Shown here: positions 16,554-37,550 of the stretch, in pieces | Position numbering within the stretch: the stretch's first letter is position 1 | How the letters are laid out: the number at the start of each line of letters is the position of its first letter | Virus record (IMG/VR): IMGVR_UViG_2923302340_000009 | Coordinates: 1-54,993 of that record | Strand: one strand, 5' to 3' | DNA length: 54,993 nt | Source of the DNA: a virus | Taxonomy: Duplodnaviria; Heunggongvirae; Uroviricota; Caudoviricetes | Program-made: the position numbers and the translations under genes | The notes under the pieces: generated by a model | The model's database searches: none | What the model saw: only the letters and a program-made list of their open reading frames with translations | Told to the model about the DNA's origin: nothing

Positions 16554-18125
16554 TTACTGAGAGCTCAGATCAACTTTCCAGGGCAACAGATCGCGTACCC
16601 GGTTTGCCGGCCAGTCCTGGATATGTTCAATGACGTAGCGCAGCCACTTTTCTGGCTCCACATTGTTCAGACGGCATGTGCCGATCAGCGAGTACAACAC
16701 CGCCGCATGTTCACCACCGCTGTCGGAACCCGCGAACATCCAGTTTTTCCGGCCTACGGCCACTCCCCGTAAGGCGTTCTCTGCGATGTTGTTGTCGATT
16801 TCCACCCAGCCATTACTGCAGTACACGTTCAGTGCATCCCACTGTTTCAGCAGGTATGCGAACGCTTTTGCCGTATCTGAGTGACGCGACAGTGTTTTCA
16901 TCTGTTGCTGTATCCAGTCATACAGTGACTGCATCAGTGGCGCGGCTCTGGTTTTTCTTGCCGCCAGACGCTGTTCTGCTGAACAGCCCCGGACCTCTGC
17001 CTCGATGGCATACAGTTCACCGATACGCTGCAGGGCTTCCGTGGTGATGTCGGTGGGCGCTCTTGCATGCACATCGTGGATTTTTCTCCGGGCATGAGCC
17101 ATACACGCGGCTTCCGTTATTCTGCCGGATTCGTATAACGCCCGGTAACCACCGTAAGCATCGGCCTGAAGCACACCGCTGTAACCGGCCAGGTGATTTT
17201 GTGGATGGATACCTTTCCGGTCCGGACTGTACGCGAACCAGACCGCCGGGGGCATCTGTGAACCGGCGTTACGGTCATCACGGACGTAGACCCACAGCCG
17301 GGCTGTCCGGGTTTTACCGCTGCCCGGCTCCTGGACCGGGACGGGGATATCATCAGCATGGACTTTACCGGGCATCAGCACATACTGGCGCAGGACGTCA
17401 TACAGCGGCTCCAGTAGTTCAGCAACGGCACCTGTCCAGCGCCCCAGCGTGGCGCGGCTCAGCTCCACACCCTGACGGCGGTATATCTCTGACTGGCGGT
17501 ATAACGGCAGATGGTCTGCATATTTTCCGGTGACGACATGGGCCAGGAGCCCCGCTCCGGCATAACTGCGTGCAATGGGTTTTGAAGGTACTGGTGCCTG
17601 CACGATATGGTCGCACCGGCAACAGGCCAGTTTCGGACGTTGTGTTTCGATAACCTTAAAGGCGCTGCTGATAAGCTCCAGTTGCTCTGACACATCACAT
17701 CCCAGAGAACTGAGTTCACCACCACAGGCCGGACAGCATTCCTCTTCCGGCCGGATAACCCGGGTTTCACGGGGAAGTGAGGCCGGTAACGGTTTACGGG
17801 CTGAAGACTGGCGCAGGGCGGATGGCAGTACCGGGTCATATTGCTCACCCAGCGTTTCCGCCATTTCTTCCTGAAGTGCGCTGATTCGCTCCTGTGCTTC
17901 CTGTATCTGCCGTTCGGTTTTTGCGCGAAGTTTTTCTGAGCTTTTACCGAACTGCATACGCTGCAGTTTCGCAACCAGCGCCTTCAGCCGGTTGATTTCG
18001 GAAGCATAAGCCGCCACCCGCTGTGAGAGCAGGCGGTTGTATTCAGCCATCTGGCGTATGGTGTCCTGTTGCGTCTGCAACAGTGCCCGCAGGCGGGCGT
18101 TCTCATGAGCAAGTGAGGTGTCCAT
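16554..18125 (-). CDS. tnpC: IS66-family transposase TnpC
   Basis: 523 aa with N-terminal coiled coil and Cys-rich zinc-finger region typical of IS66 Orf3. Confidence 0.85.
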
Positions 18126-18144
18126 ATCCTCACTTTACAACGGG

Positions 18145-18492
18145 TTATATACGGATTCCAGCGCGTTCCGTTCGTTTCGGGTGCTTCCAGTTGATACCTT
18201 CAAGAAGCATGGATAACTGAGCCGGAGTAAGGTGCACCTTGCCGTCACGGGTGACTGGCCAGACGAAGCGGCCCCGCTCCAGGCGTTTGGTGAAGAGGCA
18301 CAGTCCGTCACTGTCAGCCCACAACACTTTTATCTGGTCACCCCGGCGTCCGCGGAAGATGAACAGGTGTCCGGAGAACGGGTCATCCTTCAGGACGTTC
18401 TGAACTTTTGATGCCAGGCCGTTAAAACCATTTCGCATGTCGGTGATACCGGCAACCAGCCAGATACGCGAACCGGCAGGGAGAGATATCAT
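18145..18492 (-). CDS. tnpB: IS66-family accessory protein TnpB (Orf2)
   Basis: 115 aa; position and size match IS66 Orf2. Confidence 0.8.
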   Translation of the reverse strand: MISLPAGSRIWLVAGITDMRNGFNGLASKVQNVLKDDPFSGHLFIFRGRRGDQIKVLWADSDGLCLFTKRLERGRFVWPVTRDGKVHLTPAQLSMLLEGINWKHPKRTERAGIRI

Positions 18493-19169
18493 CAGTGGCT
18501 GCTCCCTTTCATTTCGCGGATAAGTGTCTGTAATAACGCCGGCGTCAGTTTACCTTTAAGCCTGAGAGTTCCGGCCGGCAGAACCAGCTCGCAGCACAGA
18601 CTGTCTGGCAGTGTATTTATCTGTTCAGGTATCTGCACTGGTGCCGGGATTTTATTATCCGGCTCCGGCGTTAACGTCACGGGAAGTAGCGATGTTTCAT
18701 GTTCGCCGGGCGGCTGCAGGCCGCCGTTACGCCAGAGATGCCGCCAGTTAAAGAGCAGGTTATCGTTGATTCCGTTTTCCCGGGCGATCTGCGCCACACA
18801 GGCTCCGGGCTGCAGTGACTGCTCCACTAAGGCGATTTTAAACTCATAAGGGAAGTTGGGCCGCCGGGGACGTTTTTTTACCACGGGGGCTTCGGATATA
18901 ACGGTGCTTTCAGGACGTACGACTGGTACCGTGGAAAATTGTCCGTAAAGGCAGGCATCAAGTTCCTGCTCCGACATGCCTGCGGGCAAAGGCCACGAAA
19001 GGCCAGCTCTCCGAAAGCGCACGAACATACTACAAACGGTTGATTTTGGTACACCCAGGCGACGCCCGGCCACAACCCGGGGTAAATGTTCTTCAAAGTG
19101 AAGACGTAAAGCTTCAGTGATCCAGGTCCGATGTTTCATACGATAGTGTCCATTAAAAATGATGGACAT
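18492..19169 (-). CDS. tnpA: IS66-family accessory protein TnpA (Orf1)
   Basis: 225 aa with N-terminal HTH-like region; first ORF of the IS. Confidence 0.75.
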   Translation of the reverse strand: MSIIFNGHYRMKHRTWITEALRLHFEEHLPRVVAGRRLGVPKSTVCSMFVRFRRAGLSWPLPAGMSEQELDACLYGQFSTVPVVRPESTVISEAPVVKKRPRRPNFPYEFKIALVEQSLQPGACVAQIARENGINDNLLFNWRHLWRNGGLQPPGEHETSLLPVTLTPEPDNKIPAPVQIPEQINTLPDSLCCELVLPAGTLRLKGKLTPALLQTLIREMKGSSH

Positions 19170-21104: not shown

Positions 21105-22424
21105 TTACACTGGTGTGTTCAGCAAATCGTTAACGGCATCAGATGCCGGGTTACCTGCAGCCAGCGATGCCGGTGCCCCCTGCATCAGACGATCCAGCGC
21201 AGTGTCACTGCGCGCCTGTGCACTCTGTGGTGCTGCGGCCAGAATGCGGCGGGCCGTTTCCACGGTCATACCGGGGGTTTCTGCCAGCACGCGGGCCTGT
21301 TCTTCGCGTCCGTGAGCCTCCTCACAGTTGAGGATCCCCATAATGCGGCTGTTTTCTGCCGCAACCGCAGCGGTGATCTGCGCGTTCACGTCCGGCTGCG
21401 CCGCGCTGGCGTTTTCGCCCTCCGTCGCTGGCACCACGTCAGTAACGTCAGCCTGCGAAGCAGTGGCTGAAACAGTTGTTGATTGAGTCTCTTTGGTCAT
21501 TCGCCCTCCTGAGAGACGGGATTTACGTGCATCCAGTGCATCACGCATAACGGTGATCGCATCGGTACTGTTAACAAGTTCATCAGCCAGTCCGGCATCA
21601 ATGGCCTCCTGACCGCTGTACACTGCAGCCTCGGTATCCAGCACAGCCTGCACAGACAGGCCGGTATATGCCGACACCTTCTGCGCAAACATCTGGCGGG
21701 TTGCGTCCATCCGGGACTGCAGTGTCTCCCGGACGTCATCCGGAAGATGGCTGTAGGGATTGCCATCCACCTTATGGCTGCCGCTGTAAATCAGCGTGAT
21801 TTCCACGCCCTGTTTCTCCAGCGCAGCACCGTAATTGCTGTGAGCCATCATGACGCCGATGGAGCCTGTCCGGGCGGTCTGCGTGACCAGACGCCGGGAG
21901 GCGGCGCTGGCAAGCAGCTGACCTGCACTGCAGTTCATGTCGTTGGCCAGCGCCCATACCGGTTTTATGTCTCGCACACGGGCGATGATGTCAGCACAGT
22001 CAAATGCTCCCGCCACCATCCCGCCCGGTGTGTCCATATCCAGCAGAATGCCGTCCACCATCGGATCGCTGGCAGCCTGTTGCAGACGGGCGATAATGCC
22101 GTTGTAACCGGTCATCCCCGAGTACGGCTGCAGCGCCCGCGTCCGGCTGACCAGCGTACCGGACACCGGCAGCACGGCGATGCCGTTCATGACCTGATAG
22201 CTGCGGGCCTGTCGTGGTCCGTCATCATCACCGGATATCGCCAGCGCCGCGGGTGCCTCTCCGGCAGTCAGGCTGTCGCCGGATACTGCATCCGTCAGGC
22301 GGCTGATCCCAAGCTGGCCTGCAAGCGCACAAAAGAAAACCCGCGCATAGGCGGGTTCAAGCATCAGCGGCTCATTAAAAGCCATGCTGGCAATATGCGG
22401 GAGATTACGCAGCTCTGCTGTCAC
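21105..22424 (-). CDS. C: head protease/minor capsid protein C (with in-frame scaffold Nu3)
   Basis: Matches lambda gpC from VTAELRNLPHIASMAF (GTG start); overlaps 3' end of B. Confidence 0.9.
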   Translation of the reverse strand: MTAELRNLPHIASMAFNEPLMLEPAYARVFFCALAGQLGISRLTDAVSGDSLTAGEAPAALAISGDDDGPRQARSYQVMNGIAVLPVSGTLVSRTRALQPYSGMTGYNGIIARLQQAASDPMVDGILLDMDTPGGMVAGAFDCADIIARVRDIKPVWALANDMNCSAGQLLASAASRRLVTQTARTGSIGVMMAHSNYGAALEKQGVEITLIYSGSHKVDGNPYSHLPDDVRETLQSRMDATRQMFAQKVSAYTGLSVQAVLDTEAAVYSGQEAIDAGLADELVNSTDAITVMRDALDARKSRLSGGRMTKETQSTTVSATASQADVTDVVPATEGENASAAQPDVNAQITAAVAAENSRIMGILNCEEAHGREEQARVLAETPGMTVETARRILAAAPQSAQARSDTALDRLMQGAPASLAAGNPASDAVNDLLNTPV

Positions 22425-23184
22425 TCTTCTCCTCCTCTGTTGATTGTCGCAGTCCGGATTCAAATGCCGCAGCCGCCCAGGCGGGCGGTTTAAGACCGGC
22501 TGCACGGCGCTCCATCGTTTCACGGACCTGCTGGGCAAAAATTTCCTGATAGTCGTCACCGCGTTTTGCGCACTCTTTCTCGTAGGTGCTCAGTCCGGCT
22601 TCTATCAGCATCACCGCTTCCTGTACTTCTTTCAGACCATCGATGGCCATACGACCGGAGCCTATCCAGTCACAGTTCCCCCAGGCACTGCGGGCTTCCT
22701 GAAAGCTGAAGCGCGCTTTTGAAGGTAACGTCACCACGCGGCGAACGATGGCCTCTTCCAGCCAGCACAGAAACATCTGGCTCGCCTGACGGGATGCGAC
22801 GAATTTTCGCCGCCCCATAAAGTACGCCCACGACTCGTTCGCGCTGGCCCGTGCCGTGGAGTAGCTCATCTGGGCGTAATTCCGGGAAAGCTGCTCATAC
22901 GAGACACCCAGCCCGGCAGCGATATACCGCAGCAGTGACTGCTCAAACACGGAGTAGCCGTTATCCGTATCCTGAGCCGTCTGCAGGTTCAGTGAGTCAC
23001 CCGGCATCAGGTGCGGCACTTTTGCGCCTCCAAGCCGGACCGGCGCTGCGGCGTAATACGCGGCAATTTCACCAATCCAGCCGGTCAGCTTGTCCCGCTG
23101 CTCCTGACTGTTCGCGCCCAGAATAAAATCCATCGCTGACTGCGTATCCAGCTCACTCTCAATGGTGGCGGCATACATCGCCTT
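22405..23184 (-). pseudogene. B: portal protein B, C-terminal segment (codons 277-533) separated from N-terminal segment by the inserted island
   Basis: MYAATIESELDTQSAMDF... to end matches lambda gpB C-terminus; preceding codons KA retained at the junction. Confidence 0.9.
23172..23184. repeat. left copy of 13-bp direct repeat (catacatcgcctt) bounding the island; putative att core
   Basis: Same 13-mer with one mismatch (cataaatcgcctt) at 34071..34083; lambda portal sequence is continuous across one copy. Confidence 0.7.
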
Positions 23185-23256
23185 TATGAAAAGACAGGAA
23201 AAAATAAAATTTAAAAACAGTACATTACGAATGCTCAGACCTATCGTTTAAAGGAG

Positions 23257-23280
23257 TCGCAATACACACTGCAATACACG
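23257..23280. repeat. two tandem copies of GCAATACAC motif near left island end (putative integrase/AlpA arm sites)
   Basis: tcgcaatacacac tgcaatacacg; same motif three times at right end 33894..33947. Confidence 0.5.
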
Positions 23281-23619
23281 ATTATTTATAAGATGAGCGG
23301 CATCCGTCATAAAGCTGGTGGATGCTTTTTCTATGCATATATGCACAGTTTTAGTGGGCGTTAATGTCGATATAGGGATCCCCATATCGAGATTGGATAC
23401 CTGGCTTTTTTCCGGTTAACCTTTAATCAGGCTGGTGGGCTTTACCTGTTTTGTATGAGTGGTCATCATGACCATGTCATAACAAAAACCCCATATTCGT
23501 GGTTTTTCTGTGTCGGGCTATTCTGTCGTTGCTGTGCTGATTTGGCTGGTGGGCTGAATCATCATTACGGCGATGCAGCTATGTAGACGTTCCGGCCTCC
23601 TCAAATTGAGGATTGTGGA

Positions 23620-23980
23620 AGAATCAATGGGTTAGTCTTACTTTCCCGACATCCCCCAATGGGGGTTTTCGAAACAATCAATAGCTTAGGCTTACTTCCC
23701 CGATTTCCTGCATTGCAGGTTTTCGAAATAATCAATGGGTTAGGCCATCGTGCAATTTTGCACTTTGCCAGCCAGCGCAATGTCGCGTTATCAGTCCTCA
23801 GATGTGAGGGATGTAGCCAGCTTTTCCCCCAGTGGGGGATATCCAGCACCGACGGCTTAACTGTGCGTGCCAGCACAAGGTAGCCTTGAACTACTTACTG
23901 CATCCCATCTTACAGGCCGTGCCTTCCTGCTTAACTTTTTGCAATGCAACAAGTCAGCCAGCGCAATTTTGCGTTATCGG
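23620..23980. repeat. array of about 54-bp periodic repeats (aatcaatRgSttagg) each followed by a short GC palindrome and ttttcgaaa
   Basis: Three units starting near 23622, 23676, 23730; palindromes cccccaatggggg, cctgcattgcagg, gtgcaattttgcac, cccccagtggggg; second family cagccagcgcaatNNNgcgttatc twice. Confidence 0.5.
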
Positions 23981-23993
23981 GAATATCAGCAAG

Positions 23994-24275
23994 TTACCGC
24001 CGCAATCGTTCCGGCTTCTTCCACTGGTAAGTATTTTTCGCGCTCTCCCTCCGTTGTTGAGAAAGGCGACGATATGCCAGCAACTCAAGGACTCTTGTTC
24101 GTATGTTGCGCATATCCACGCCGTTAAGCTCAATACCGTCACGGCGCATCACCTCAGCCACTACACGCACATAATTATCTGCGGTCACGCTGTCCGGCTG
24201 CGTGGCCTGTTCGTCATGCTGCTTGCTGATTCCACAAGCACGGCGGATTAATCGCAGTATTTCGGATTCAGTCAT
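23994..24275 (-). CDS. hypothetical protein (island packaging module)
   Basis: 93-aa ORF 11 nt downstream of TerS-like gene; no recognisable family. Confidence 0.45.
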   Translation of the reverse strand: MTESEILRLIRRACGISKQHDEQATQPDSVTADNYVRVVAEVMRRDGIELNGVDMRNIRTRVLELLAYRRLSQQRRESAKNTYQWKKPERLRR

Positions 24276-24286
24276 AGCGTACTACG

Positions 24287-24829
24287 TTACTTATCTTTAT
24301 TCGGCTGCAACTTATCCGGTACGTTTCCGGCAGTTTCCATCAGATAATCGGACAGCATCAGCGGTATGTTTTCGTCAAGTTTTGCGCATGCGTTACAGGC
24401 TCTGATAACTTCTTTTTTCAGTCCATCCAGCATAGACGGCTTCATGTCGGGAAACTTCCTTGTCATGGCAAGCGGCAGGCTGTCCATGATTGAAGAAATC
24501 TGACTCGCCAATTTTGAAAGCACGTATATACAAAACGCTGTATCAATAACGTCGCCGCGTTCGCGCTCGTTTTTAAGCTCCTGCGCCTCTGCCTGTGCTG
24601 TCAGCAATCTGATCCTGACTCGTAGGAGTTCATCATCATCAATCTCGCCTTTGTCGTCTGTAATCTGGTTAATTGCATTGCTAACCCGATTGTCTATTAC
24701 GCTGGCAACATCATAAAACGCCTCGCGGCCTTTACGTTCAACGGGAGTCACTCCCCACTTGTCGAACGCTGTCGCACTTACACGGCAGCTTTGCGCCATG
24801 TTTTTTTTGTTCATCAGGTGCGATTTCAT
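24287..24829 (-). CDS. terminase small subunit-like protein (lambda Nu1 homologue) encoded by the island
   Basis: Aligns with lambda Nu1 core LTRAQADAQELKN...AFCTFVLSRIAGEIASILDGIPL; ATG at 24829 preceded by GGGGA; lies downstream of island cos. Confidence 0.75.
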   Translation of the reverse strand: MKSHLMNKKNMAQSCRVSATAFDKWGVTPVERKGREAFYDVASVIDNRVSNAINQITDDKGEIDDDELLRVRIRLLTAQAEAQELKNERERGDVIDTAFCIYVLSKLASQISSIMDSLPLAMTRKFPDMKPSMLDGLKKEVIRACNACAKLDENIPLMLSDYLMETAGNVPDKLQPNKDK

Positions 24830-24940
24830 CAATATCCCCACTTAAGTAATGTTTCAGGTTGGTGTATTGACTTTATCTTTTCCTTTTTATTCATAGAGAT
24901 AGAGCGAACAACAAAACCACCACCAGCACCCGAAAAAGGC

Positions 24941-25010
24941 TCATAAATAGCGAAAACCCGCGAGGTCGCCGCCCCGTAGCCTACCGGATCACCGGAAAGG
25001 ACCCGCCAGC
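24941..25010 (-). other. island cos site with canonical lambda-type cosN (GGGCGGCGACCT) and lambda-like cosQ-side flank, divergent cosB side
   Basis: Plus strand aaatagcgaaaacccgcg AGGTCGCCGCCC cgtagcctaccggatcaccggaaaggacccgcc (cosN 24963..24974); paralogous to prophage cos at about 37700. Confidence 0.75.
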
Positions 25011-25030
25011 CAGAGCGGGCCCTAATTTCA

Positions 25031-25414
25031 TCAACCAATCAGCTTATAGCGACCATCCCGTGCATTGCGGCGTACACGCTCAATCTTGAGGCATAGCGCC
25101 GCATCTGGCTTTTTTGGGACAGGTACGCGGCAATATTCAGAAGCGCGAGGAATATTATTTATCCAGTCGATCACTTCACTTAAATACCAGGCCTTACGCC
25201 CTTCCGTAACCTGCACACGCTCCGGGAACTCTCCACTAGCCTCAAGGTTTAGCAGTGTACGACGACTCAGGGTTGTAATTTCCATCACCTGATTCATATC
25301 AACAAGGCGCTCGCTTAAACACATTTTGTCAGCGATAGCTTTTAATTCCTCTACAGCTGGATTCGGGTACATCATTTCGGCAATTGGCTTAAGGTCATTG
25401 TAATCATTCTGCAT
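25031..25414 (-). CDS. AlpA-family HTH protein (second copy, in packaging module)
   Basis: Motif ITTLSRRTLLNLEASGEFPERVQVTEGRKAWYLSEVIDWI; strong SD AGGGGGA. Confidence 0.65.
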   Translation of the reverse strand: MQNDYNDLKPIAEMMYPNPAVEELKAIADKMCLSERLVDMNQVMEITTLSRRTLLNLEASGEFPERVQVTEGRKAWYLSEVIDWINNIPRASEYCRVPVPKKPDAALCLKIERVRRNARDGRYKLIG

Positions 25415-25425
25415 TGTATCCCCCT

Positions 25426-25767
25426 TTACACACGAGCCAGCGGCTGAACAGAAATACCTGAGCCAACAAACGCTGCAACCTTTACTGACAGTTCTTTAAC
25501 AGACTCAGGCCAGTTCAGAGCATCAACATTTAAGACACCTGTCTTATAGACCTGAGCCTGTGTTTTTTTCGCGGTGTCGATTTGTACAGCGGAAACATAA
25601 ACCGCTTTACCTACGCTCGAACCATCCCATACCACCAGTGCACCTGTTGCATCTTCCTGCATCAGTGGCGTAAATGCAGGAATTACCCCTTTATTAGCTG
25701 AAAATATCCCCAGCGTAGTCACCAGTGCTTCAGTGCCAGCCATGAGTTCAGTGTAATGAGTAGCCAT
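25426..25767 (-). CDS. head decoration protein, lambda gpD-like (island paralogue)
   Basis: 113 aa alignable to lambda gpD (PAFTPLM...VWDGSS...); SD AGGGGGAG. Confidence 0.75.
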   Translation of the reverse strand: MATHYTELMAGTEALVTTLGIFSANKGVIPAFTPLMQEDATGALVVWDGSSVGKAVYVSAVQIDTAKKTQAQVYKTGVLNVDALNWPESVKELSVKVAAFVGSGISVQPLARV

Positions 25768-25776
25768 TGCTCCCCC

Positions 25777-26823
25777 TTAGCCAATGCGAACGGTAACAAA
25801 ACGATTGATGCGGGCCGGTATTGGCTGTGGTGCTGAATGTGTCTGCACATATTCAATAGCCGGATCACCAGGCACAATATAGTTTTTCGGTGCAAGTTCG
25901 GCTTTAGTCAGCCCCATTCGGATTAGCTCCGGATCCTGAATACCGCCATAGGCGACAATCCCCTGAAGAGCCGTATTGCCAAGCACCATCAAATCAGGAT
26001 CAAGGAAATGTTTTTCTGTTCCGTCCTCGTCGGTATAACGCCCGCTGTAAACAACAATCGCAACATCGCCCATATACCCTTTAAAACTCACCGAATCACC
26101 AAGGTCTTTAAGGGCCGTTTCCAGTTCGGAATTAGAACCACGACGGGTATCCAAAGCCTCTTTTATCGCTCTGAATGAACGGTATTTCTTCCATACATTA
26201 CCACCCATAATGATGATATTAGTGACGCCCTCACTAAATTCTGCGTAGCTCTCAATATCATCATTTGGATCAAAAGTTTCTTTATCCTTACCTGACCACT
26301 CAGTACCGCCAGACTGAGTGATGATATTTTGTGGTTTTATATTCCAGTCCAGCTCATAACGTTCAATACCATCGCCCTCAATGATATTTTTCCCCGTTGT
26401 GATTGCCTGAACAGCAAGCCATTCAATACGTGCACGAATAGCTTTAGCCTGATTTACAATCGCCTGTTTAACTTTAATATTACGCGCCCCAAAAGCATTG
26501 TATTGCTCAGGTGACACACCAGCAGGGCGCACAGCTAACTTATTTGGATCAATGCTGCTTTTCGGCTTCATATAACCTGGACGAATTGTTTTTGATTCGT
26601 ATCCCTCATCTCGTGAAACTTTACTGCCCACCATAGGAGAGCAAAACGCCGCGATCGGGATATTTGGATCGTCGATCGTATCAAGAATAATGTCTCTCGA
26701 TTCAAACATTACCGAGCGAGTGAAAAACAAACTGGTAAACAACGCATTTAATTTTTTTTGCACATCTTCAGCATTAGCCACCTGCACAAGCTGTGTAGGC
26801 GAATATAAATCAACCATACTCAT
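25777..26823 (-). CDS. major capsid protein, lambda gpE-like (island paralogue)
   Basis: Roughly half identity to lambda gpE by eye across C-terminal two-thirds (QSGGTEW...LDTRRGSNSELETA...VAIVVYSG); start at MSMVDLYS with SD AAGAGGA. Confidence 0.8.
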   Translation of the reverse strand: MSMVDLYSPTQLVQVANAEDVQKKLNALFTSLFFTRSVMFESRDIILDTIDDPNIPIAAFCSPMVGSKVSRDEGYESKTIRPGYMKPKSSIDPNKLAVRPAGVSPEQYNAFGARNIKVKQAIVNQAKAIRARIEWLAVQAITTGKNIIEGDGIERYELDWNIKPQNIITQSGGTEWSGKDKETFDPNDDIESYAEFSEGVTNIIIMGGNVWKKYRSFRAIKEALDTRRGSNSELETALKDLGDSVSFKGYMGDVAIVVYSGRYTDEDGTEKHFLDPDLMVLGNTALQGIVAYGGIQDPELIRMGLTKAELAPKNYIVPGDPAIEYVQTHSAPQPIPARINRFVTVRIG

Positions 26824-26988
26824 CCTCTTTACATTCATTACAAATAATTGTGAATATATTCTATTACCGATGTCTGCTATGCGAACACATGCAACCAAGT
26901 GCAATGTTGTATAAAATATGCCGTAACAACTTCAGTGCTGATAATTCGTGTTAATGTATTTACTTCCTTTGGTCGGGATTTATGTAGC

Positions 26989-27028
26989 ATGCCGGAAAAT
27001 CTATTTTTTTCCGGCATCTTTTTGTTTG
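26989..27028 (+). terminator. plus-strand hairpin with T-tract between island ssb and capsid genes
   Basis: atgccggaaa / tttccggcat 10-bp stem followed by ctttttgtttg on plus strand; both neighbouring genes are on minus strand. Confidence 0.35.
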
Positions 27029-27034
27029 CAGAAT

Positions 27035-27457
27035 TTAAAACGGTATATTATCGCCGTACGGATCATCATTCCCCGACTGTTGTTTTGCCCTGTTCAGTGC
27101 GTCAGTGGCCTGCCCCTGCTGGCCTTTTTTGCCGCCCGGTCGCGCCGTTCGCGCACTGATTACGCTGTCTGCGATAACCTGCCAGCCCCGCCGCGTTTCG
27201 CCGTTCTGGCCTGTCCACTGGCTTACCTGCATGTTACCCGCCACGCTCACCAGTTCGCCTTTGTGGTGTTTTGCCAGTGCGTCGGCCTGTCTGCCAAACG
27301 CCAGGACGGATAACCACATCGTCGCCGTTCCGTCATCTGCCTGGCTGCACGGCAGGGGAACCGCCATACTCGCCATCGCCATTTGTGTCCCTTTGCTGGT
27401 GGTCTTTAACTGCGGGTCAGCCACCAGCCGCCCGTAAGCCGCTATCTGTGCTGTCAT
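27035..27457 (-). CDS. ssb: single-stranded DNA-binding protein (SSB-like)
   Basis: 140 aa with Gly/Gln-rich linker and acidic C-terminal tail DDPYGDNIPF typical of SSB. Confidence 0.75.
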   Translation of the reverse strand: MTAQIAAYGRLVADPQLKTTSKGTQMAMASMAVPLPCSQADDGTATMWLSVLAFGRQADALAKHHKGELVSVAGNMQVSQWTGQNGETRRGWQVIADSVISARTARPGGKKGQQGQATDALNRAKQQSGNDDPYGDNIPF

Positions 27458-27768
27458 GCTGTCTGCTCTCCGGTTTTAACATTGATGGTTGTCACCTGTT
27501 CCGCTTCGGCAATCTCCCGTTCTGTCAGCGTGGCAAAGTTTGCCGCTGCTGTGGTCATAAATGCGCTTATCAGGTCGGGATGTTCCTTCGCGTATCCTGC
27601 CCGTGTGTGGTGGTCTATCGCTTTGATTGCCACCTTTAAGGAAAGCTCTGTCATGTCTAACGCTTTATATTTTGCCTGTGTTCTGTCTCTGCGAATTTTG
27701 GTCATTTGTCGCCCCTGATTCATGTTTTCGGCTGGCATGTTTGTTAAGTGATTTTTATGTATGCGCAT
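27454..27768 (-). CDS. hypothetical protein translationally coupled to ssb
   Basis: 104-aa ORF; stop overlaps ssb ATG (ATGA). Confidence 0.45.
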   Translation of the reverse strand: MRIHKNHLTNMPAENMNQGRQMTKIRRDRTQAKYKALDMTELSLKVAIKAIDHHTRAGYAKEHPDLISAFMTTAAANFATLTEREIAEAEQVTTINVKTGEQTA

Positions 27769-27819
27769 TTATTTTCACCCCCCCTCGTTTAAAAAGTTTT
27801 TAGTTGTGCCTCCCCCCCT

Positions 27820-28045
27820 CTACCCATCTACCCGAATGCTCATCATGTCAGTAATGGCGCCGCTTTCAGCGGGTAGATAGCTTTTTTGACTCCTCTACCT
27901 GCCGTCTACCCTGCTACCTGAAACTGATAAAATCAGGTAGAAGAGGTAGAGAGCTTTTATTAGCCTTCTACCTAGCCCTATATCCACTTATCATGTTGAA
28001 TAATATGCATTTATTTCGTTCAGGTAGATGGGGTAGATGGCTTTT
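27820..28045. repeat. iteron cluster (GGTAGA / TCTACC motifs, about 12 copies in both orientations); putative island replication origin
   Basis: ctctaccc, atctaccc, gggtagat, aggtagaagaggtagag, ggtagatggggtagatgg immediately upstream of primase gene. Confidence 0.7.
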
Positions 28046-28053
28046 ACAAAAAA

Positions 28054-29808
28054 TTATAAAAACGCGTCGCAATCGTCTGTTGTAATTGCGTTGGTCTGCG
28101 TTACTCCCTTAACTTTTCGCGTAATATATTCATGCCCGTAAACTTTCGCCGCTGGCTTCATGGCCTTGCTGAACTCAGCCACGTTTAGCGGTTTGCTCCT
28201 GCCCGCGTATGCCATAAACGCCAGATAGACGCGGTAAAGGCTGTTCCTGGTCGTGTACTTCACTGAATCACCACCGCCACCCATCATCAGGCCGCGCGCT
28301 TCCTCCAGAAAATTCAGGAACTGGCAAAACTCAATAACCGGATCCGTCTGTTGCTTTATTGCCAGTGCTTCATCACCGTCACGCTGTTCCAGTAGTAAAG
28401 CCCGTGCCTTCTCAGGGTCGGTAAAGTTCGCCAGCAATCGGCGGATAATAACGGGGATTTCAGCCGCAATCTTTTCCGGTAGCTCCCTGTCTTTTTCGGC
28501 CTCACTGACGATATTGTCGAAACGGAAAATCACGCGACGACGTGCCACACCTCCGGCCCGTTCGGTGAATATCATCGGGTTGTTGTTGGTCGCCAGCACC
28601 ACCGCCCTGATTACCGCCGTGAAACGCTTTTCATATTTCGGGTTAATTTCCACGGGGTCGCCGCCTGTGATTTTCTTGATGCCCGTTCCTTCGCCTGTAT
28701 ATTTCGGCTGGTCAGCCAGGACGATAAGACGACTCCCGACAACCTGCGCACGTCCACCAGCATCATCAAGCGATGTCATTTCAGCGCTTACCGTGTTCTG
28801 TTTCCCTGCCAGAAGGCTGGCTATGTGTGTGAATGTACTTTTACCGCTCCCGCCGTCTCCGGTGGCCTCAATAAACATCTGCCAGTCGTACCGGTTCGCC
28901 ATAATCATGTACAGCGCGGCACATATACGCATCATCTTGCGCGGGTCTTTTCCGGCTGCGTGCTCAAGCCATTTATGAAAGTTTGGCGCGTTATCGCGGA
29001 TGTTCTCCCCTGGTGCTGGTGGCGTGTACTCAATGCCGTTGTGCGTGGTGATCCAGTTCTCCGGCGTGTGCGGGGAAAATTCCCCCGTTTTCAGGTCAAG
29101 CGCACCATTGGCGAACGGCAGCAAATCGCCAGACGGCTCGCCCATTGGTTCGGCAATAACTTTTAACGCTTCCACGGCGTTATTGATTACGCGCTTGCTG
29201 AAAGTGGCCCTGTGCTCTGAATAGATCGCCACCATTTCGCGGCTAAGTTCCATTGTGCTGACCGGACACCATACCCCGCCGCGCCATACGTGAACGATTT
29301 CACTTTCAGGATGTACGCAAACGCCATCAAAGCGATCGGCAAGCAACTGCGCGCGCTCACTGTCCGCCATCTGCGAAAGTTGCGCCTTTTGCTTTACCGG
29401 AAGCTCAATGACCAGACCATCAGAAAGATTCTGGCGTTCACGGGCCAGATATTCGCGCCAGGTCTGCACCTCCTGGCCGTGCATACCCTCAGGATAAAAA
29501 TTTGCATCCTGTACGCCTGCTGCCGCCAGCTTCTGACCAATCGCCTTTATCATTACAGGCGCAAGATATCCGGCCCTGTATATGCGTGCTGATTTTCGGC
29601 CTTCCGGCACAATTTGCAGATTATCCAGTTCGGATAGCTGCTGCTCCCCAAGCCACACAGGAGGCTCATTATCTCCGGCCATACGCGCATCATGTTCCTG
29701 CCATTGTTTCGCGTGTGCCCAGGCATCACTACCCGCAAAAATAATTACTTCTGTTCCTTTGTGTTTTATGCCGCGTGACTGCTGTTTTACGTTCGGTGCC
29801 AGTTTCAT
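28054..29808 (-). CDS. primase-helicase (P4 alpha-like replication protein with P-loop NTPase domain)
   Basis: 584 aa; Walker A GDGGSGKST; adjacent iterons; translationally coupled to upstream ORF. Confidence 0.75.
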   Translation of the reverse strand: MKLAPNVKQQSRGIKHKGTEVIIFAGSDAWAHAKQWQEHDARMAGDNEPPVWLGEQQLSELDNLQIVPEGRKSARIYRAGYLAPVMIKAIGQKLAAAGVQDANFYPEGMHGQEVQTWREYLARERQNLSDGLVIELPVKQKAQLSQMADSERAQLLADRFDGVCVHPESEIVHVWRGGVWCPVSTMELSREMVAIYSEHRATFSKRVINNAVEALKVIAEPMGEPSGDLLPFANGALDLKTGEFSPHTPENWITTHNGIEYTPPAPGENIRDNAPNFHKWLEHAAGKDPRKMMRICAALYMIMANRYDWQMFIEATGDGGSGKSTFTHIASLLAGKQNTVSAEMTSLDDAGGRAQVVGSRLIVLADQPKYTGEGTGIKKITGGDPVEINPKYEKRFTAVIRAVVLATNNNPMIFTERAGGVARRRVIFRFDNIVSEAEKDRELPEKIAAEIPVIIRRLLANFTDPEKARALLLEQRDGDEALAIKQQTDPVIEFCQFLNFLEEARGLMMGGGGDSVKYTTRNSLYRVYLAFMAYAGRSKPLNVAEFSKAMKPAAKVYGHEYITRKVKGVTQTNAITTDDCDAFL

Positions 29809-30104
29809 TTTTTACCTCTGAATCCGTTAATCATGGTTTTCATTTTCTGGATATTTCCCCACGCTTTTTCCCTGCTGATGGGCTTACTGCGGGGTGCGGC
29901 ATATACCAGGGAAAAATCACGCCGGAACTGATAAACAGGCATCACGCAGTCATAGCTATACCCCTCACGGCGGTAAGTGATGCGCCGTTCTGCCACGCCT
30001 TTAATCGTTACCGTGCCGCCGTATTTATCGCGGTAAATATCGCCGTTCATAAATTCAGGTCGAGCGGGGCCGCTGGCAATAAAGCCAGAATTTTTCATTT
30101 CCAT
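29805..30104 (-). CDS. hypothetical protein
   Basis: 99-aa ORF whose stop overlaps primase start. Confidence 0.45.
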   Translation of the reverse strand: MEMKNSGFIASGPARPEFMNGDIYRDKYGGTVTIKGVAERRITYRREGYSYDCVMPVYQFRRDFSLVYAAPRSKPISREKAWGNIQKMKTMINGFRGKK

Positions 30105-30121
30105 ATTATTTATTCCTCGAC

Positions 30122-30343
30122 TTAACTCGACTTATTTGATAGCAGGGCACTATTTATTGCGTCATTGAGTTTTTCTGCTGATTCATCAATAAGTGACAAC
30201 AGGCCATAAGCAATATTTGCATCTTCATTGTCATTTATGCAATCAAGCCACATATTTAATATTGCTTTTGCTGAATTATTTAAAGTTAATGAACTTTCTG
30301 CACATGCTAACAATTTAAAAAAGACTTCCCGTTCTGTATTCAT
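30122..30343 (-). CDS. hypothetical small protein
   Basis: 73-aa ORF in tightly packed three-gene array. Confidence 0.4.
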   Translation of the reverse strand: MNTEREVFFKLLACAESSLTLNNSAKAILNMWLDCINDNEDANIAYGLLSLIDESAEKLNDAINSALLSNKSS

Positions 30344-30535
30344 TTAATCCCCCACCAGCTTACTTTCTTCCTCAATCAAAAAACTAGCGACACTTCCCGA
30401 AAGACGCGCCAGTAGGCTCGCCAGTGCGGATATATCAGCATCTGTAATTTTGTTCGGGTATACCTCAAGAAGGCGGCAAATAATTTCTGTCTGGTGCGCA
30501 CGTTCAGCGGCTTCGTGTAATGTAATTTCCTGCAT
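30344..30535 (-). CDS. hypothetical small protein
   Basis: 63-aa ORF abutting neighbours. Confidence 0.4.
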   Translation of the reverse strand: MQEITLHEAAERAHQTEIICRLLEVYPNKITDADISALASLLARLSGSVASFLIEEESKLVGD

Positions 30536-30720
30536 TAATGCACCTCTTTTAATTCATACACTGCTGAAATAATGACTTGTGATAAGCCATATTCTGATGA
30601 TTCGCTTCTCACCGCAGCAATAGCCGTCTGAACATTAACAGCCTTCACATTCTGAGCGATACCAATTGTGTGGCCTATTGGGTTAACAGCTCGGGCAAAT
30701 ACACGGAAGGTTTTAAGCAT
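30535..30720 (-). CDS. hypothetical small protein
   Basis: 61-aa ORF with SD GGGAG; first gene of minus-strand array. Confidence 0.4.
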   Translation of the reverse strand: MLKTFRVFARAVNPIGHTIGIAQNVKAVNVQTAIAAVRSESSEYGLSQVIISAVYELKEVH

Positions 30721-31001
30721 GACTCACTCCCTGGCGGATTTTTGCAGCGAATACAGCAACACAACCGGACGGGCAACGGCTACGCGCTTCGCGTTCCGTC
30801 CAGGCGGTTACGTGGATGATTTGAGATTCTCCGGCACTCAGTGCCAGAAAACGCCACACAAAGGCCGTTTGTGTGTGTACAAGGTGTGGTATATGATTTA
30901 CAGCAACCATAACGGCTCCTAGTTTACGTTGTTGGTTAGACGCCCCGTATGTGTTCCCAGCACTGCGGGGCGTTGCTCTTTGTATTTCAACAATCCTTTC
31001 G

Positions 31002-31034
31002 GTGTGTTTCATGTTATGAGCGCATGAAACACAC
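31002..31034. promoter_or_regulatory. 12-bp perfect inverted repeat (gtgtgtttcatg N9 catgaaacacac) in divergent intergenic region; putative operator
   Basis: Lies between minus-strand small-gene array and plus-strand gene at 31101; half-site gaaacacac recurs at about 31071. Confidence 0.5.
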
Positions 31035-31100
31035 GTCAAGGCTTTTTGTATTTCTTTTTTTGTGTATACTGAAACACACCGATGATTAGGAGTTTCAGAA

Positions 31101-31406
31101 ATGGCAACGGCTAACAAAAACGCAAAATCACAACTGACAACTGTCAGAGTCCCACTAGATGTTATGCAAGGGATGGAATCCGTTAAGCTGGACGGTGAAA
31201 GCAATGCCGGATTTATCGTAACCGCCATGCGCGGAGAAATAGCCCGCCGCCAAGCAGAAGGCAGCGGAGAAAATCCCCTTGTGTCGTCACTGGATGCCCT
31301 GGCTAAGGTCGAACAAATCGGCATCAAAGCAGCCGAGGAGATCGGGCAACTCGTCACCGTCGCGCGTGAAGAACTCCAGCGACGCAAGGTCAAAGAGCAT
31401 GAATAG
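31101..31406 (+). CDS. hypothetical protein, candidate island regulator
   Basis: 101-aa ORF with SD AGGAG; divergent from small-gene array; downstream of operator-like repeats. Confidence 0.5.
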   Translation: MATANKNAKSQLTTVRVPLDVMQGMESVKLDGESNAGFIVTAMRGEIARRQAEGSGENPLVSSLDALAKVEQIGIKAAEEIGQLVTVAREELQRRKVKEHE

Positions 31407-31463
31407 CCAATATCAGCGCCATAGTTTGAGGAACGCAGGCGCATTGCTTTACAGGACAGCACC

Positions 31464-31643
31464 ATGAGCGACACAGAATCAACCAAAACACCATCACCAA
31501 CTCGTAAGAGACGACGCAAAAATATAGCGCATGAACATGAATCAGAAAGATTCGCACCTTGTTCGTTTGCTCTTGAGAAATTCCTTAAAGAGCACAGGAA
31601 AAAGCTCTCGTTGCAAACCTTGGAACGAACCAAATCTGACTGA
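31464..31643 (+). CDS. hypothetical small basic protein
   Basis: 59-aa ORF (not in track, below 60 aa) MSDTESTKTPSPTRKRRRKN...; followed by terminator. Confidence 0.3.
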   Translation: MSDTESTKTPSPTRKRRRKNIAHEHESERFAPCSFALEKFLKEHRKKLSLQTLERTKSD

Positions 31644-31709
31644 TCACATTGCCCACCAGCCGCAAATGTGGCATTGTTGGTGATGCTTTTGTTTTCCCTT
31701 GTTCCCACT

Positions 31710-31740
31710 GGCGACCCTTTTGCGGTCGCCTTTGTTTTGT
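31710..31740 (+). terminator. rho-independent terminator for plus-strand island genes
   Basis: ggcgacc-cttttgc-ggtcgcc hairpin followed by TTTGTTTTGT. Confidence 0.55.
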
Positions 31741-32318
31741 CACTGAATGCGGTTACCAAAGTAAAACTCAGGCTGATATTCACGTATCAGCGTTTTTTCT
31801 TCTTCCTCCAGCTCACGCTTTTTGCGCTTACATGCCTGTAGCTCCCTCCCCTTCTCGCTGGCACTTATTTGATATTGCTCTTTACGGCGGGAAAAATCCT
31901 GTAATGCACCCCACGGGATACCATAAGTCCCCGTTTTTCTGATACCTGGTATCACATTTCTGAATACCCAGTTACTGAAACGATGAGCAAATGTGCCAGG
32001 CGTCGTTGCTTTGCGGCTGCGGGCTATTAGTTTGTAGAAACCTGACTCAGAGATAATTCTCATATTCTGATTTCCTCCTGGGGTGTAAGTTAAATTTACT
32101 CCCTTTTCATCATCATCAAGCATCTGCAACGCCGTACGCGAATTGGTTAGTTCCAGCGCAGCACAAACATCTTTTGCAACAAACCACGGATCGCCGTTCA
32201 GATACACCACACGAACGTTCACACTATCAAAGCGCAGAACGACGAGATCACGAATATCGCAGAATTTTTTCACTGGACGAGCGTACCCCTTGCCCGTCAC
32301 GGCAATATTTTTATTCAT
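31740..32318 (-). CDS. BRO-N domain protein (antirepressor-like)
   Basis: N-terminal VVLRFDSVNVRVVYLNGDPWFVAKDVCAALEL resembles Bro-N/KilA-N family. Confidence 0.65.
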   Translation of the reverse strand: MNKNIAVTGKGYARPVKKFCDIRDLVVLRFDSVNVRVVYLNGDPWFVAKDVCAALELTNSRTALQMLDDDEKGVNLTYTPGGNQNMRIISESGFYKLIARSRKATTPGTFAHRFSNWVFRNVIPGIRKTGTYGIPWGALQDFSRRKEQYQISASEKGRELQACKRKKRELEEEEKTLIREYQPEFYFGNRIQ

Positions 32319-32334
32319 CGCGTTTTTACCTTAT

Positions 32335-32361
32335 AGACAAAAAACCCCTCGTGATGAGGGG
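32335..32361 (-). terminator. rho-independent terminator downstream of alpA
   Basis: On minus strand cccctcatcacgagggg followed by TTTTTTGTC. Confidence 0.55.
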
Positions 32362-32374
32362 CATTATTTACTGG

Positions 32375-32632
32375 TTATTGCTGTTTTGTTTTTCCAGGTT
32401 TCCATCCAGGATGCCACTCACCACGGATCCATGCCTGAACCTCTGAAAGTCGATACCCTGCAGCACGTTCACCGATCTTGATACGTCGCGGGAATTTACC
32501 TGCCTGCTCCATTTTCCAGCGTGTTGAGTTTGCCAGCGTGGTAAGTGCTATGCACTCTTTTTCACGAATGAACCGATCAATGTCCTTCATTGTGCGCAAA
32601 TCGTTTTCATCAACAAGAGAATAAATTGCCAT
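32375..32632 (-). CDS. alpA: AlpA-family transcriptional regulator/excisionase-like protein
   Basis: 85 aa; ...FPRRIKIGERAAGYRLSEVQAWI motif; immediately downstream of integrase. Confidence 0.75.
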   Translation of the reverse strand: MAIYSLVDENDLRTMKDIDRFIREKECIALTTLANSTRWKMEQAGKFPRRIKIGERAAGYRLSEVQAWIRGEWHPGWKPGKTKQQ

Positions 32633-32633
32633 A

Positions 32634-33875
32634 TCACACCACCTCTTTATTAAGCTCGATAACGTTGTTGTTAAATCCTGCTATCGTATTAAGGTAATTA
32701 ACCCACATATTAAGCACCTCAAGTTTTTTCTTTATATGCCTGCTTTTATTGTAAACACCAGCAACCCCTTTCACTTTATGACCTAAAAGAAGTTCGACAA
32801 TATAAGGATCCGCCCCCATATCATTAAGCGTAGTGGAAAATGTGCGCCTGAAATCATGTATGCACCACAAGCCATTAGTATCATGACCAAGACGCCTGCA
32901 TATTCTGTTTGCAGCCCCTGTTATTGTCGCCCTTTGCAAAGCACAACCGACAACATAACCGCGATTTTTTGTTTCTGCGTAAAGATTAACGATCCATTGT
33001 TTTATTCCGTCAGGAACAGGCCTTACTATAGCCTCCTTGTTTTTGCTGTGCTCTTTTGGGACTGTCCATACCCAGTTTTTTAAATCCCATTCGTCCCAGG
33101 TGGATAGCCTCGCCTCCTGCTGTCGGCAACCAAACACCAGGCAGATAACCATTATTCTTCGGTTATATATTGATGACAGAGTTAGCAAATTATTACCGTA
33201 AGCATAAGACCATACATCAGCGGTTTCATTGATATTAAGAACGCGATCCCTTATACCGGATGAGCGCCCGACATAACTTACGTTAATATCTCCAAAGGGA
33301 TCGCACGCGATGTATTGCCTGACGCGACAAAAACGCAACGCCTGTTTGATATCAAGAAAAATTGCACCAGACATAACAGGCGCATTTTTTTTGATCCTGT
33401 CAAAGACGGTAAGCCATGTGTGTAATTTGCACTGTTCTATAGCCATATCACCGATATAGGGGAAGATATGCTTTTCAAATCGTTTTATTAAATATTCATG
33501 CTCTTTTCTGGCTGTTGTGGCGTGATTGTCGTACCAGTAAAACAGCGCATCCCTTACGGTCACTGGTTGCATAGTTTTTTCGGCAGCAAGTTTTATTTGC
33601 CTGCGGGGGTCCAGATTTTCAGCCAGCCATTCACGGCACTGATCACGCATGCGCCTGGCCGTTGCAAGAGACATGTCAGGATAGCGACCAAGTGTAAGCC
33701 ATACCGGAGGGAATTCCCTGCCACCAAGACGATAGTAAAAAACAAAGCTGATCCCCCCAACCATGCTTACACGCACAGACAACCCGCGCCCATCCGCTAT
33801 TGTTTTTTGTTTGTCCTGCCGTTTTCCGACAAGACTCTTTAACAGTTTGTCACTGAGTTTGTTTTCAATAGCCAT
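32634..33875 (-). CDS. int: P4-type tyrosine integrase
   Basis: 413 aa; P4-like N-terminal arm-binding region and C-terminal HDFRRTF...LLGH...Y catalytic region; adjacent to island end. Confidence 0.85.
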   Translation of the reverse strand: MAIENKLSDKLLKSLVGKRQDKQKTIADGRGLSVRVSMVGGISFVFYYRLGGREFPPVWLTLGRYPDMSLATARRMRDQCREWLAENLDPRRQIKLAAEKTMQPVTVRDALFYWYDNHATTARKEHEYLIKRFEKHIFPYIGDMAIEQCKLHTWLTVFDRIKKNAPVMSGAIFLDIKQALRFCRVRQYIACDPFGDINVSYVGRSSGIRDRVLNINETADVWSYAYGNNLLTLSSIYNRRIMVICLVFGCRQQEARLSTWDEWDLKNWVWTVPKEHSKNKEAIVRPVPDGIKQWIVNLYAETKNRGYVVGCALQRATITGAANRICRRLGHDTNGLWCIHDFRRTFSTTLNDMGADPYIVELLLGHKVKGVAGVYNKSRHIKKKLEVLNMWVNYLNTIAGFNNNVIELNKEVV

Positions 33876-33893
33876 TAAAAGCCCTCAAGAGAT

Positions 33894-33947
33894 TTGCAAT
33901 ACACACCCATCCCGATCGCCAATTTGCAATACACATTGCAATACACA
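33894..33947. repeat. three direct copies of TTGCAATACACA next to integrase start (putative arm-type binding sites)
   Basis: Copies at about 33894, 33924, 33936; same motif at left island end. Confidence 0.55.
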
Positions 33948-34023
33948 AAACCGCGAAAAACTGGAAGGGTGATGAACGGTCATCAAAAGCATGGAAAACG
34001 ACATTCCAGACGCAGCAAGGGTT

Positions 34024-37004
<2,981 letters not shown>

Positions 37005-37030
<26 letters not shown>

Positions 37031-37550
37031 TCAGCAACCCCGGTATCAGTTCATCCAGCGCGGCTGCTTTGTTCATGGCTTTGATGATATCCCGTTTCAG
37101 GAAATCAACATGTCGGTTTTCCAGTTCCGGAAAACGCCGCTGCACCGACAGGGGGATCCCGTCGAGAATACTGGCAATTTCACCTGCGATCCGCGACAGC
37201 ACGAAAGTACAGAATGCAGTTTCCACCACTTCAGCGGAGTCTCTGGCATTTTTCAGCTCCTGTGCGTCGGCCTGCGCACGCGTAAGTCGATGGCGTTCGT
37301 ACTCAATAGTCCCTGGCTGGAGATCTGCCTCGCTGGCCTGTCGCAGTTCTTCAACCTCCCGGCGCAGCTTTTCGTTCTCAATTTCAGCATCCCTTTCGGC
37401 ATACCATTTTATGACGGCGGCAGAGTCATAAAGCACCTCATTACCCTTCCCACCGCCTCGCAGAACGGGCATTCCCTGCTCCTGCCAGTTCTGAATGGTA
37501 CGGATACTCGCGCCGAAAATGTCAGCCAGCTGCTTTTTGTTGACTTCCAT
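37005..37550 (-). CDS. nu1: terminase small subunit Nu1
   Basis: 181 aa, matches lambda Nu1 (MEVNKKQLADIFGASIRTIQNW...). Confidence 0.96.

Follow-up and report, generated by a model that had tools for sequence, protein, structure and literature searches.

A lambda-type cosQ/cosN core beside a foreign cosB and a Nu1-family small terminase gene in a satellite island within a lambda-type prophage

The stretch of viral DNA analyzed here (54,993 nucleotides, IMG/VR record IMGVR_UViG_2923302340_000009, Caudoviricetes; in the following "the window") contains a lambda-type prophage, and inserted in this prophage an island of the phage-inducible chromosomal island (PICI) type that has a cos site of its own. 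In this cos site, a cosQ/cosN core of the lambda type stands beside a foreign cosB, and the gene directly downstream encodes, as judged by its sequence, a genuine full-length small terminase (TerS) of the Nu1 family. We consider it probable that the two serve packaging redirection, in which the island TerS would bind the island cosB and recruit the large terminase (TerL) of a helper phage. An earlier note on this DNA had placed the arrangement at positions 24287 to 25010, and these coordinates are correct. The arrangement is less novel than that note implied; cos-type PICIs with a lambda-like cosQ/cosN and a foreign cosB have already been published (PMC6092414, PMC6739421), terS homologues were noted in some Gram-negative PICIs in 2018 (PMC6092414), and a "small terminase" is a core PICI component in SatelliteFinder (PMC10085698). 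Precedents for redirection by satellite proteins are the TerS of Staphylococcus aureus pathogenicity islands (SaPIs) for pac packaging and Rpp for cos packaging (PMC6739421, PMC6092414). In the papers that were searched, we found no functional or sequence-level description of the TerS of a cos-type PICI together with its cognate cosB, only the mention from 2018, and it is also absent from a list of satellite packaging strategies of 2022.

The island cos site and its small terminase

The cos site and the adjoining gene comprise the following features, with base pairs (bp) counted from the first base of cosN:

24998 to 25004, minus strand: cosQ heptamer GGGTCCT, at −30 to −24 from the first cosN base, which equals its position in lambda (48473–48479)
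24963 to 24974, minus strand: cosN cohesive-end 12-mer GGGCGGCGACCT, 12/12 identical to lambda, with ACG upstream
24941 to 24962, minus strand: right flank of cosN and spacer between cosN and cosB (bp 13–34), with 22/22 bases shared with lambda as well as with the prophage in the window
24830 to 24940, minus strand: island cosB region (bp 35–145), without lambda R sites or a consensus for integration host factor (IHF), conserved among TerS-type islands
24910 to 24927, minus strand: proposed island R3-equivalent GCTGGTGGTGGTTTTGTT (bp 48–65), in the slot of lambda R3 (bp 50–65) and N15 R3 (bp 48–60; PMC9026076)
24287 to 24829, minus strand: island TerS, Nu1 family, 180 amino acids, with a putative N15-like winged helix-turn-helix domain, a Nu1-like assembly domain and a C-terminal region

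The island cos was compared with that of lambda (NC_001416) on the minus strand, with cosN as anchor. Upstream of cosN, 83% of the bases from −35 to −1 are identical, and past the spacer the identity drops to 52% at bp 35–80 and to 30% at bp 81–200; the similarity to lambda thus stops where lambda has its R3-I1-R2-R1 array. The 12-mer GGGCGGCGACCT occurs only once in the window, on the minus strand, and a second cosN with at most one mismatch was not found in the window. By chance, about 0.007 exact 12-mers would be expected in 55 kb on both strands (simple arithmetic), and 0.28 if one mismatch is allowed (shuffles). The cosQ heptamer as well as the cosN 12-mer are invariant in five aligned island cos sites and in the diverged island L012, and cos adjoins terS on its upstream side in every island examined. 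The earlier note had claimed a lambda cosQ-side flank with an exact cosN, as well as a cosB side that is unrelated to the Nu1 binding sites of lambda, and both claims are borne out. In the island cosB, the best match to the 16-bp R3 of lambda reaches only 10/16, compared with 13 and 12 for lambda's own R2 and R1, and no IHF consensus is present there, as found by a scan that did detect, as a positive control, the lambda-type I1 of the prophage at 37649–37661. A lambda-like R3-I1-R2 layout of the island cosB was therefore rejected. Inverted repeats near cosB (bp 56–69 with 163–176, and bp 105–117 with 134–146) are short and imperfect, and no reading rests on them. In conclusion, the island cos is a lambda-type cosQ/cosN core beside a foreign cosB.

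The gene next to this cos site carries the PGAP label "terminase small subunit" (WP_000835282.1), and its product is indeed the diverged Nu1 homologue that had been postulated. It aligns with lambda Nu1 over its full length with 38% identity (residues 6–167, E 2e-36, BLASTP), its whole length is likewise covered by the match to phrog_57, terminase small subunit (E 5e-51), and it scores 85.7 bits with the Pfam model Phage_Nu1 (PF07471; cutoff 30), a model that aligns the C-terminal half only. At the sequence level, identity to lambda Nu1 amounts to 51% in the assembly region (lambda 100–140) and to 39% in the C-terminal region (141–181), and a profile of the 27-member TerS family matches the chain of lambda TerS residues 1–98 in the Protein Data Bank (PDB 6HN7_B, E 0.0044). 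The closest phage relative is gp1 of phage N15 with 47.6% identity overall, and in the DNA-binding domain (DBD) the identity to N15 gp1 is 60%, compared with 33% for lambda. In the recognition helix, the island TerS has TAFDKWGV, N15 has QAFDKWGV and lambda has RTIQNWQE, and the island sequence differs from lambda at 7/8 positions.

Four island variants from E. coli differ from the window TerS to a very different extent along the protein, with identities of 98% in the DBD, 84–89% in the linker, 80–83% in the assembly region, and 54–66% in the last 41 residues. The terS gene is under purifying selection, as its dN/dS (Nei-Gojobori) is about 0.2 overall and 0.05–0.12 in the DBD. In the C-terminal third (codons 127–180, window 24287–24450), dS is 0.6–1.3 and hence 2–5 times higher than in the DBD (0.14–0.3), and dN/dS is 0.19–0.34 in this part. 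A fast evolution of the C-terminus by positive selection was rejected on the basis of this dN/dS and the raised dS, and the combination rather indicates a recombinational mosaicism in terS, with a C-terminal part that is of older ancestry and under continued constraint instead of relaxed selection.

Within cosB, the bp 48–65 block stands out by its conservation. The window island and L012, whose TerS proteins are about 60% identical, share 15/18 positions in this block and only 6/13 and 8/15 in its flanks, and bp 51–65 of the TerS-type islands have GGTGGTGGT(T/G)TTGTT in common. In the same slot, the window island agrees with the Rpp-type island EcCICFT073 at 1/18 and with lambda at 8/18 positions. 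From its position and its co-conservation with the recognition helix, we propose that this block is the TerS binding site; the near-invariant DBD, together with the co-conserved block, argues for a specific DNA recognition. We also considered an N15-type R3 in the island cosB, which received no statistical support: ungapped matches reach 9–10/13 and the match in register 8/18, and the 10/13 match lies on the opposite strand at bp 108–120. As the similarity to the N15 R3 is insignificant, we describe the element only as a conserved block in the R3 slot.

Packaging redirection and its alternatives

The reading that we favor comprises the following steps. Induction and replication would give rise to island concatemers, and the putative N15-like winged helix-turn-helix domain of TerS would bind to the island cosB, with GGTGGTGGTKTTGTT (bp 51–65) in the R3 slot as the candidate site. 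The Nu1-like assembly and C-terminal regions would recruit a gpA-type helper TerL, which would nick the lambda-type cosN, move the DNA into heads built by the helper, and end at the next cosQ/cosN. The competition for TerL would lower helper packaging at the same time. The analysis shows the anatomy of the sequence, its homologies and pattern of conservation, the purifying selection on terS, the insertion site and the distribution, whereas we infer that TerS binds in the R3 slot, recruits TerL, works independently of the helper TerS, and interferes with the helper. Genes for TerL, portal or tail are missing from the island, which makes a helper TerL necessary. A complete TerS, in contrast, is encoded by the island itself, and therefore the TerS of the helper is predicted to be dispensable.

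The terminase region of the resident prophage bears on this reading and comprises two features:

35105 to 37550, minus strand: prophage terminase, with Nu1 at 37005–37550 and gpA/TerL at 35105–37030, each 99% identical to lambda
37560 to 37770, minus strand: prophage cos, with a lambda-type cosQ and cosB (R3, I1, R2, R1) and a variant cosN

The redirection by a helper TerL and a satellite TerS, as it had been put forward in the earlier note, fits every sequence-level test that was run. The accompanying idea that the cosN is shared does not hold for the prophage in the window, as the alignment of the two cos regions showed: the 22-bp spacer is identical, but the prophage cosN 12-mer GGGCGGAAGGCG (37728–37739, minus strand) differs from the lambda sequence, and thus from that of the island, at 5/12 positions. 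The sharing is literal in the strains MS 85-1 and EC93, where the same island resides in prophages with a canonical cosN. The allele GGGCGGAAGGCG is also found in PhiR46_1 (PV340565), which has been deposited as a complete phage genome, and it therefore represents a natural variant and not a product of decay. TerS-type islands with the variant cosN of the prophage were not found in 5,426 complete E. coli genomes. As the same island occurs in prophages of both cosN alleles, and as the resident TerL is 99% identical to gpA, a gpA-type TerL evidently serves both. This is consistent with the TerL endonuclease being not highly sequence-specific and being positioned by TerS at cosB (PMC9026076).

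Several observations speak against redirection by the island TerS and have to be weighed. Two TerS-encoding E. coli PICIs were tested in 2018 and showed no transfer after induction of resident prophages (PMC6092414). The AlphaFold2 model of TerS, which was based on a 27-sequence alignment, is of low confidence, with a predicted local distance difference test (pLDDT) score of 63, locally about 70, and a predicted template modeling (pTM) score of 0.32. Foldseek against the PDB gave weak winged helix-turn-helix matches of the MerR/RacA type (E 0.16) and none with E < 0.1. The low-confidence model shows the order beta-alpha-alpha-hairpin-alpha in the N-terminal domain, and with such weak structural output the fold argument rests on sequence. 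The assignment of the R3 slot is likewise grounded in conservation and position, which makes it a putative one. Furthermore, N15 terminase has been reported to package lambda DNA (PMC9026076), and an N15-like DBD may therefore not distinguish sharply between the island cos and a lambda-type helper cos. The last 41 residues of the island TerS are identical to lambda Nu1 at 16/41 (39%) and to the 21-type at 15/41 positions, and the C-termini of lambda and 21 TerS agree with each other at 13/41 positions. Lambda and 21 are a TerL-incompatible pair. No phage TerS C-terminus that is more than 50% identical to that of the island was found in 50,697 phage records, and therefore the sequence does not tell whether TerS docks on the resident gpA. 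An assignment of the helper type from the TerS C-terminus was rejected, as this region is equally far from the lambda-type and the 21-type. In addition, the resident prophage may not be a competent helper here, as its portal gene is split and an IS66 element has inserted into it (see below).

The alternatives are best judged in comparison with EcCICFT073, the experimentally studied cos-type PICI of the Rpp type that has the same family and gene order as the window island (Fillol-Salom et al., 2018, 2019; Murialdo and Feiss, 2022). In its cos1, the cosQ, the cosN and the 22-bp spacer are the same as in the window island, and again they stand beside a foreign cosB without lambda R sites. Its rppA gene (144 amino acids) occupies the exact slot of the island TerS directly downstream of cos, and in both island types the packaging gene begins about 100–150 bp after cosN. 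Rpp consists of a winged helix-turn-helix and a coiled-coil of its own, has no TerL-binding C-terminus, and strictly needs the helper TerS (PMC6739421, PMC9026076). With 135–153 amino acids, Rpps lack the Nu1 assembly and TerL-binding regions, whereas the island TerS with its 180 amino acids keeps both at the sequence level, and in contrast to the strict requirement of EcCICFT073 for the helper TerS, the window island is predicted to need none. The earlier note had left room for an Rpp-like protein, and this option had to be abandoned: BLASTP against RppA gave no alignment at E ≤ 100, and searches of the PDB at E ≤ 1, with the single TerS sequence as well as with the 27-member profile, retrieved no RppC chain, although the lambda TerS chain that the profile matched belongs to an entry, 6HN7, of the complex between RppC and TerS. 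As unrelated proteins are thus found in the same slot of the same island family, Rpp and TerS are alternative cassettes at one locus. EcCICFT073 possesses an inverted cos2 in addition to cos1, whereas the window island has a single cos; in the CFT073 locus (L010), the inverted cos2 lies at 23285–23340 between rppA and the gene for a 93-residue protein.

It is unlikely, albeit more plausible than the other alternatives, that the island TerS nevertheless functions in an Rpp-like mode. In this case, mixed dimers or oligomers with the helper TerS, formed via the assembly region or the DBD, would switch to the island cosB, and the helper TerS subunits would bring TerL wholly or partly. Such mixed assemblies would be in line with the fact that the similarity to lambda Nu1 is highest in the assembly region (51%), that lambda TerS dimerizes via its DBD and oligomerizes via its central domain (PMC9026076), and that Rpp, which occupies the same slot, heterodimerizes with TerS (PMC6739421), and the diverged C-terminus makes a direct TerL docking uncertain. 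However, precisely this C-terminal region, which is missing in Rpps, is kept under purifying selection (dN/dS 0.19–0.34), the island TerS has no similarity to Rpp, and it is not evident why a complete TerS should require a partner.

We regard it as rather improbable that TerS has primarily an interference or defense role, in which it would titrate TerL or poison the helper terminase, and in which the island would be packaged mainly by means of the shared cosQ/cosN core. Satellite packaging proteins often double as interference factors, as known for Rpp and the SaPI protein Ppi (PMC6739421), and lambda transfers plasmids with the EcCICFT073 cos at reduced frequency without Rpp (PMC6739421), which indicates that a cos core retains some activity when it is joined to a foreign cosB. 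Yet, the near-invariant DBD with its co-conserved block in the R3 slot argues for a specific DNA recognition, and in all islands that were examined, terS is immediately preceded by cos. Least probable is an inert relic, in which cos and the Nu1-like gene would be left from an N15- or lambda-like head module of a degraded prophage and would have no role in mobilization; the additional E-like and D-like head genes of the island, the N15 gp1 as closest phage relative (47.6%) and the failed transfer of TerS-encoding PICIs in the only reported test (PMC6092414) could be cited for it, but the ORF is intact in hundreds of genomes with a dN/dS of about 0.2, islands at many attachment (att) sites have kept the 11-kb architecture that includes int and primase, cosQ, cosN and their spacing are perfectly kept, and no island has other packaging genes.

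The island in its prophage and its relatives

Beyond the cos site and terS, the features of the island and of the interrupted prophage gene are as follows:

23177 to 34083, minus strand: complete island of about 10.9 kb, with the 8-bp identity block AAGGCGAT at both ends
23994 to 24275, minus strand: conserved open reading frame (ORF) of 93 amino acids, phrog_1561, located behind the TerS or Rpp gene in every island of the EcCICFT073 family
25031 to 25414, minus strand: AlpA-family helix-turn-helix gene (PF05930, phrog_2790), which ends just upstream of cosQ
25426 to 26817, minus strand: homologues of the lambda head decoration protein D (25426–25767) and of the lambda major capsid protein E (25777–26817), by Pfam, PHROG and annotation
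22405 to 23184, minus strand: 3' part of the portal gene B, lambda gpB 277–533, 99% identical
34076 to 34905, minus strand: 5' part of the portal gene B, lambda gpB 1–279, 98% identical

On the minus strand, the island genes run from an integrase over a helix-turn-helix regulator, BRO-N, an Icd-like gene, small ORFs, DUF4222 and a D5_N/DUF5906 primase to SSB, followed by the lambda E-like and D-like genes, the AlpA-family gene, cos, TerS, and the 93-residue ORF. TerL, portal, protease, tail and lysis genes were not found in the island by ORF annotation or by Pfam and PHROG matches. With its size of 10.9 kb, an int gene, an AlpA-type regulator, a primase, and an almost exclusive coding on the minus strand, the element is by its sequence a PICI of the EcCICFT073 family. 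Its head genes run E then D, opposite to the order in lambda, and their counterparts in EcCICFT073 are c1500 (gpD-like) and c1499 (capsid-E-like; PMC6092414), which are dispensable for transfer. From the AlpA-like gene to terS, a promoter scan detected no site of the sigma-70 type, which fits a co-transcription of the two, and an Rfam scan of 22000–35000 for RNA families was negative. The 93-residue ORF is followed by a non-coding stretch of about 800 bp that extends to the island att end and harbors a 54-bp tandem repeat (23622–23745; 2.3 copies, 80% matches). Each repeat unit opens with a perfect IHF consensus, AATCAATRGSTTA, and the repeat may represent an attP arm or IHF sites.

The island is inserted in the prophage gene B at codon ~277–279, with the 8-bp core AAGGCGAT at 23177–23184 and at 34076–34083, and it has the same orientation as the late operon of the prophage. 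The same island is found at the same gene B site in the unrelated strains EC93 and MS 85-1, and an identical locus is present in E. coli CFSAN018748 (RefSeq-annotated). This is, from the sequence, the configuration of helper-embedded PICIs (HE-PICIs), satellites that are embedded in lambda late genes with gene B among the targets (Mageeney et al., 2023; PMC10111431), and with which the window island shares the size of about 11 kb, the EcCICFT073-like gene content, the short att identity block, and a target gene whose sequence is not replaced. The published model of an HE-PICI, 11capE, "lacks terS", and over 258 bp its cos is 90% identical to that of its helper (PMC10111431). The window island, by contrast, encodes a TerS, and what it has in common with the prophage cos is confined to the cosQ–cosN core of about 70 bp, in which even the cosN alleles differ. 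Islands of the same gene order reside elsewhere at tRNA-Pro/yejM (ATCC 25922), phoQ-roxA (O157:H7), and smrA-abgR (KSC1031), and islands with an approximately 60% identical TerS split the capsid gene E in prophages of other Enterobacteriaceae. In the gene E islands L012 to L014, which stem from metagenomic and Enterobacteriaceae contigs, genes with an FRG domain and with DUF3892 are found downstream of terS.

As to the resident prophage itself, an IS66-family element (ISCro1; tnpA, tnpB and transposase) lies at about 16554–19169 between the FI and FII-like genes, and the latter falls short of the length that it has in EC93 and MS 85-1. Both observations suggest that the prophage is probably defective. 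In the stretch examined of the MS 85-1 prophage that harbors the island, there is no IS insertion.

Relation to known systems and significance

A parallel in the predicted DNA recognition is found in phage N15, which also has a short cosB, with a single R3 in the case of N15, and no IHF site or lambda R2/R1, and which shares the AFDKWGV of the recognition helix with the island TerS. N15 and the island agree in a G..T triplet pattern in register at bp 51–59, but their R3 sequences are only 8/18 identical. Unlike the island, N15 is a whole phage that encodes a TerL, and it has GGGCGGCGTCCG as cosN. The C-terminus of N15 gp1 matches lambda at 33/41 positions, in contrast to the 16/41 of the island TerS.

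The pairing of a satellite TerS with a helper TerL on a satellite-specific site is known from the TerS_S of the pac-type SaPIs. These islands use headful (pac) packaging, their TerS belongs to an unrelated family, and a separate Ppi is needed against the phage TerS; the window island differs in being of the cos type and in keeping the cosN and cosQ of the helper type, with only cosB replaced. The cos mimicry of P4 and SaPIbov5 likewise offers a helper-type cos for cutting by the helper terminase, but there the complete helper cos and the helper TerS are used, whereas the window island has exchanged the cosB and encodes the cognate TerS itself. The capsid-forming PICI (cf-PICI) EcCIEDL933 is, similar to the window island, an E. 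coli PICI with its own TerS and capsid-related genes, but cf-PICIs have a full HK97-type head module with TerL and HNH and steal only tails, and the window island has no TerL, portal, or protease.

The cassette of TerS and cosB is present in 761 of the 5,426 complete E. coli genomes, among them O157:H7 and ATCC 25922, and the rppA cassette in 97, so that the former is about eight times more common in a comparison that covers rppA only, as RppC-type genes are too diverged for megablast counting. The TerS cassette occurs at several att sites and in portal genes of different prophages. It is possible, with a chance that we would put at slightly less than even, that TerS-type cos PICIs represent a distinct and, in E. 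coli, predominant strategy of packaging redirection. A complete Nu1-family TerS with an N15-like DBD and a single R3-type site would then replace Rpp at the same locus. The helper TerS would not be needed, and it would suffice that the helper has a gpA-type TerL able to act on different cosN alleles. If this is true, Rpp and TerS would be interchangeable cassettes of one island family, and the range of helpers would be set by the compatibility of TerS with TerL, and not by cosB.

So far, the takeover by cos-type satellites of Gram-negative bacteria is understood only via Rpp, which needs the helper TerS, and the TerS cassette predicts a dependency on TerL only. That the same island resides in lambda-type prophages with two cosN alleles indicates directly that gpA-type terminases are not bound to one cohesive-end sequence. 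If confirmed, the TerS cassette would provide an orthogonal cos/TerS pair for engineered transducing particles and a natural system to map the docking of TerS to TerL and the cos recognition via a single R3. It would also explain which phages mobilize the majority of E. coli PICIs, which are carriers of virulence regulators and defense genes.

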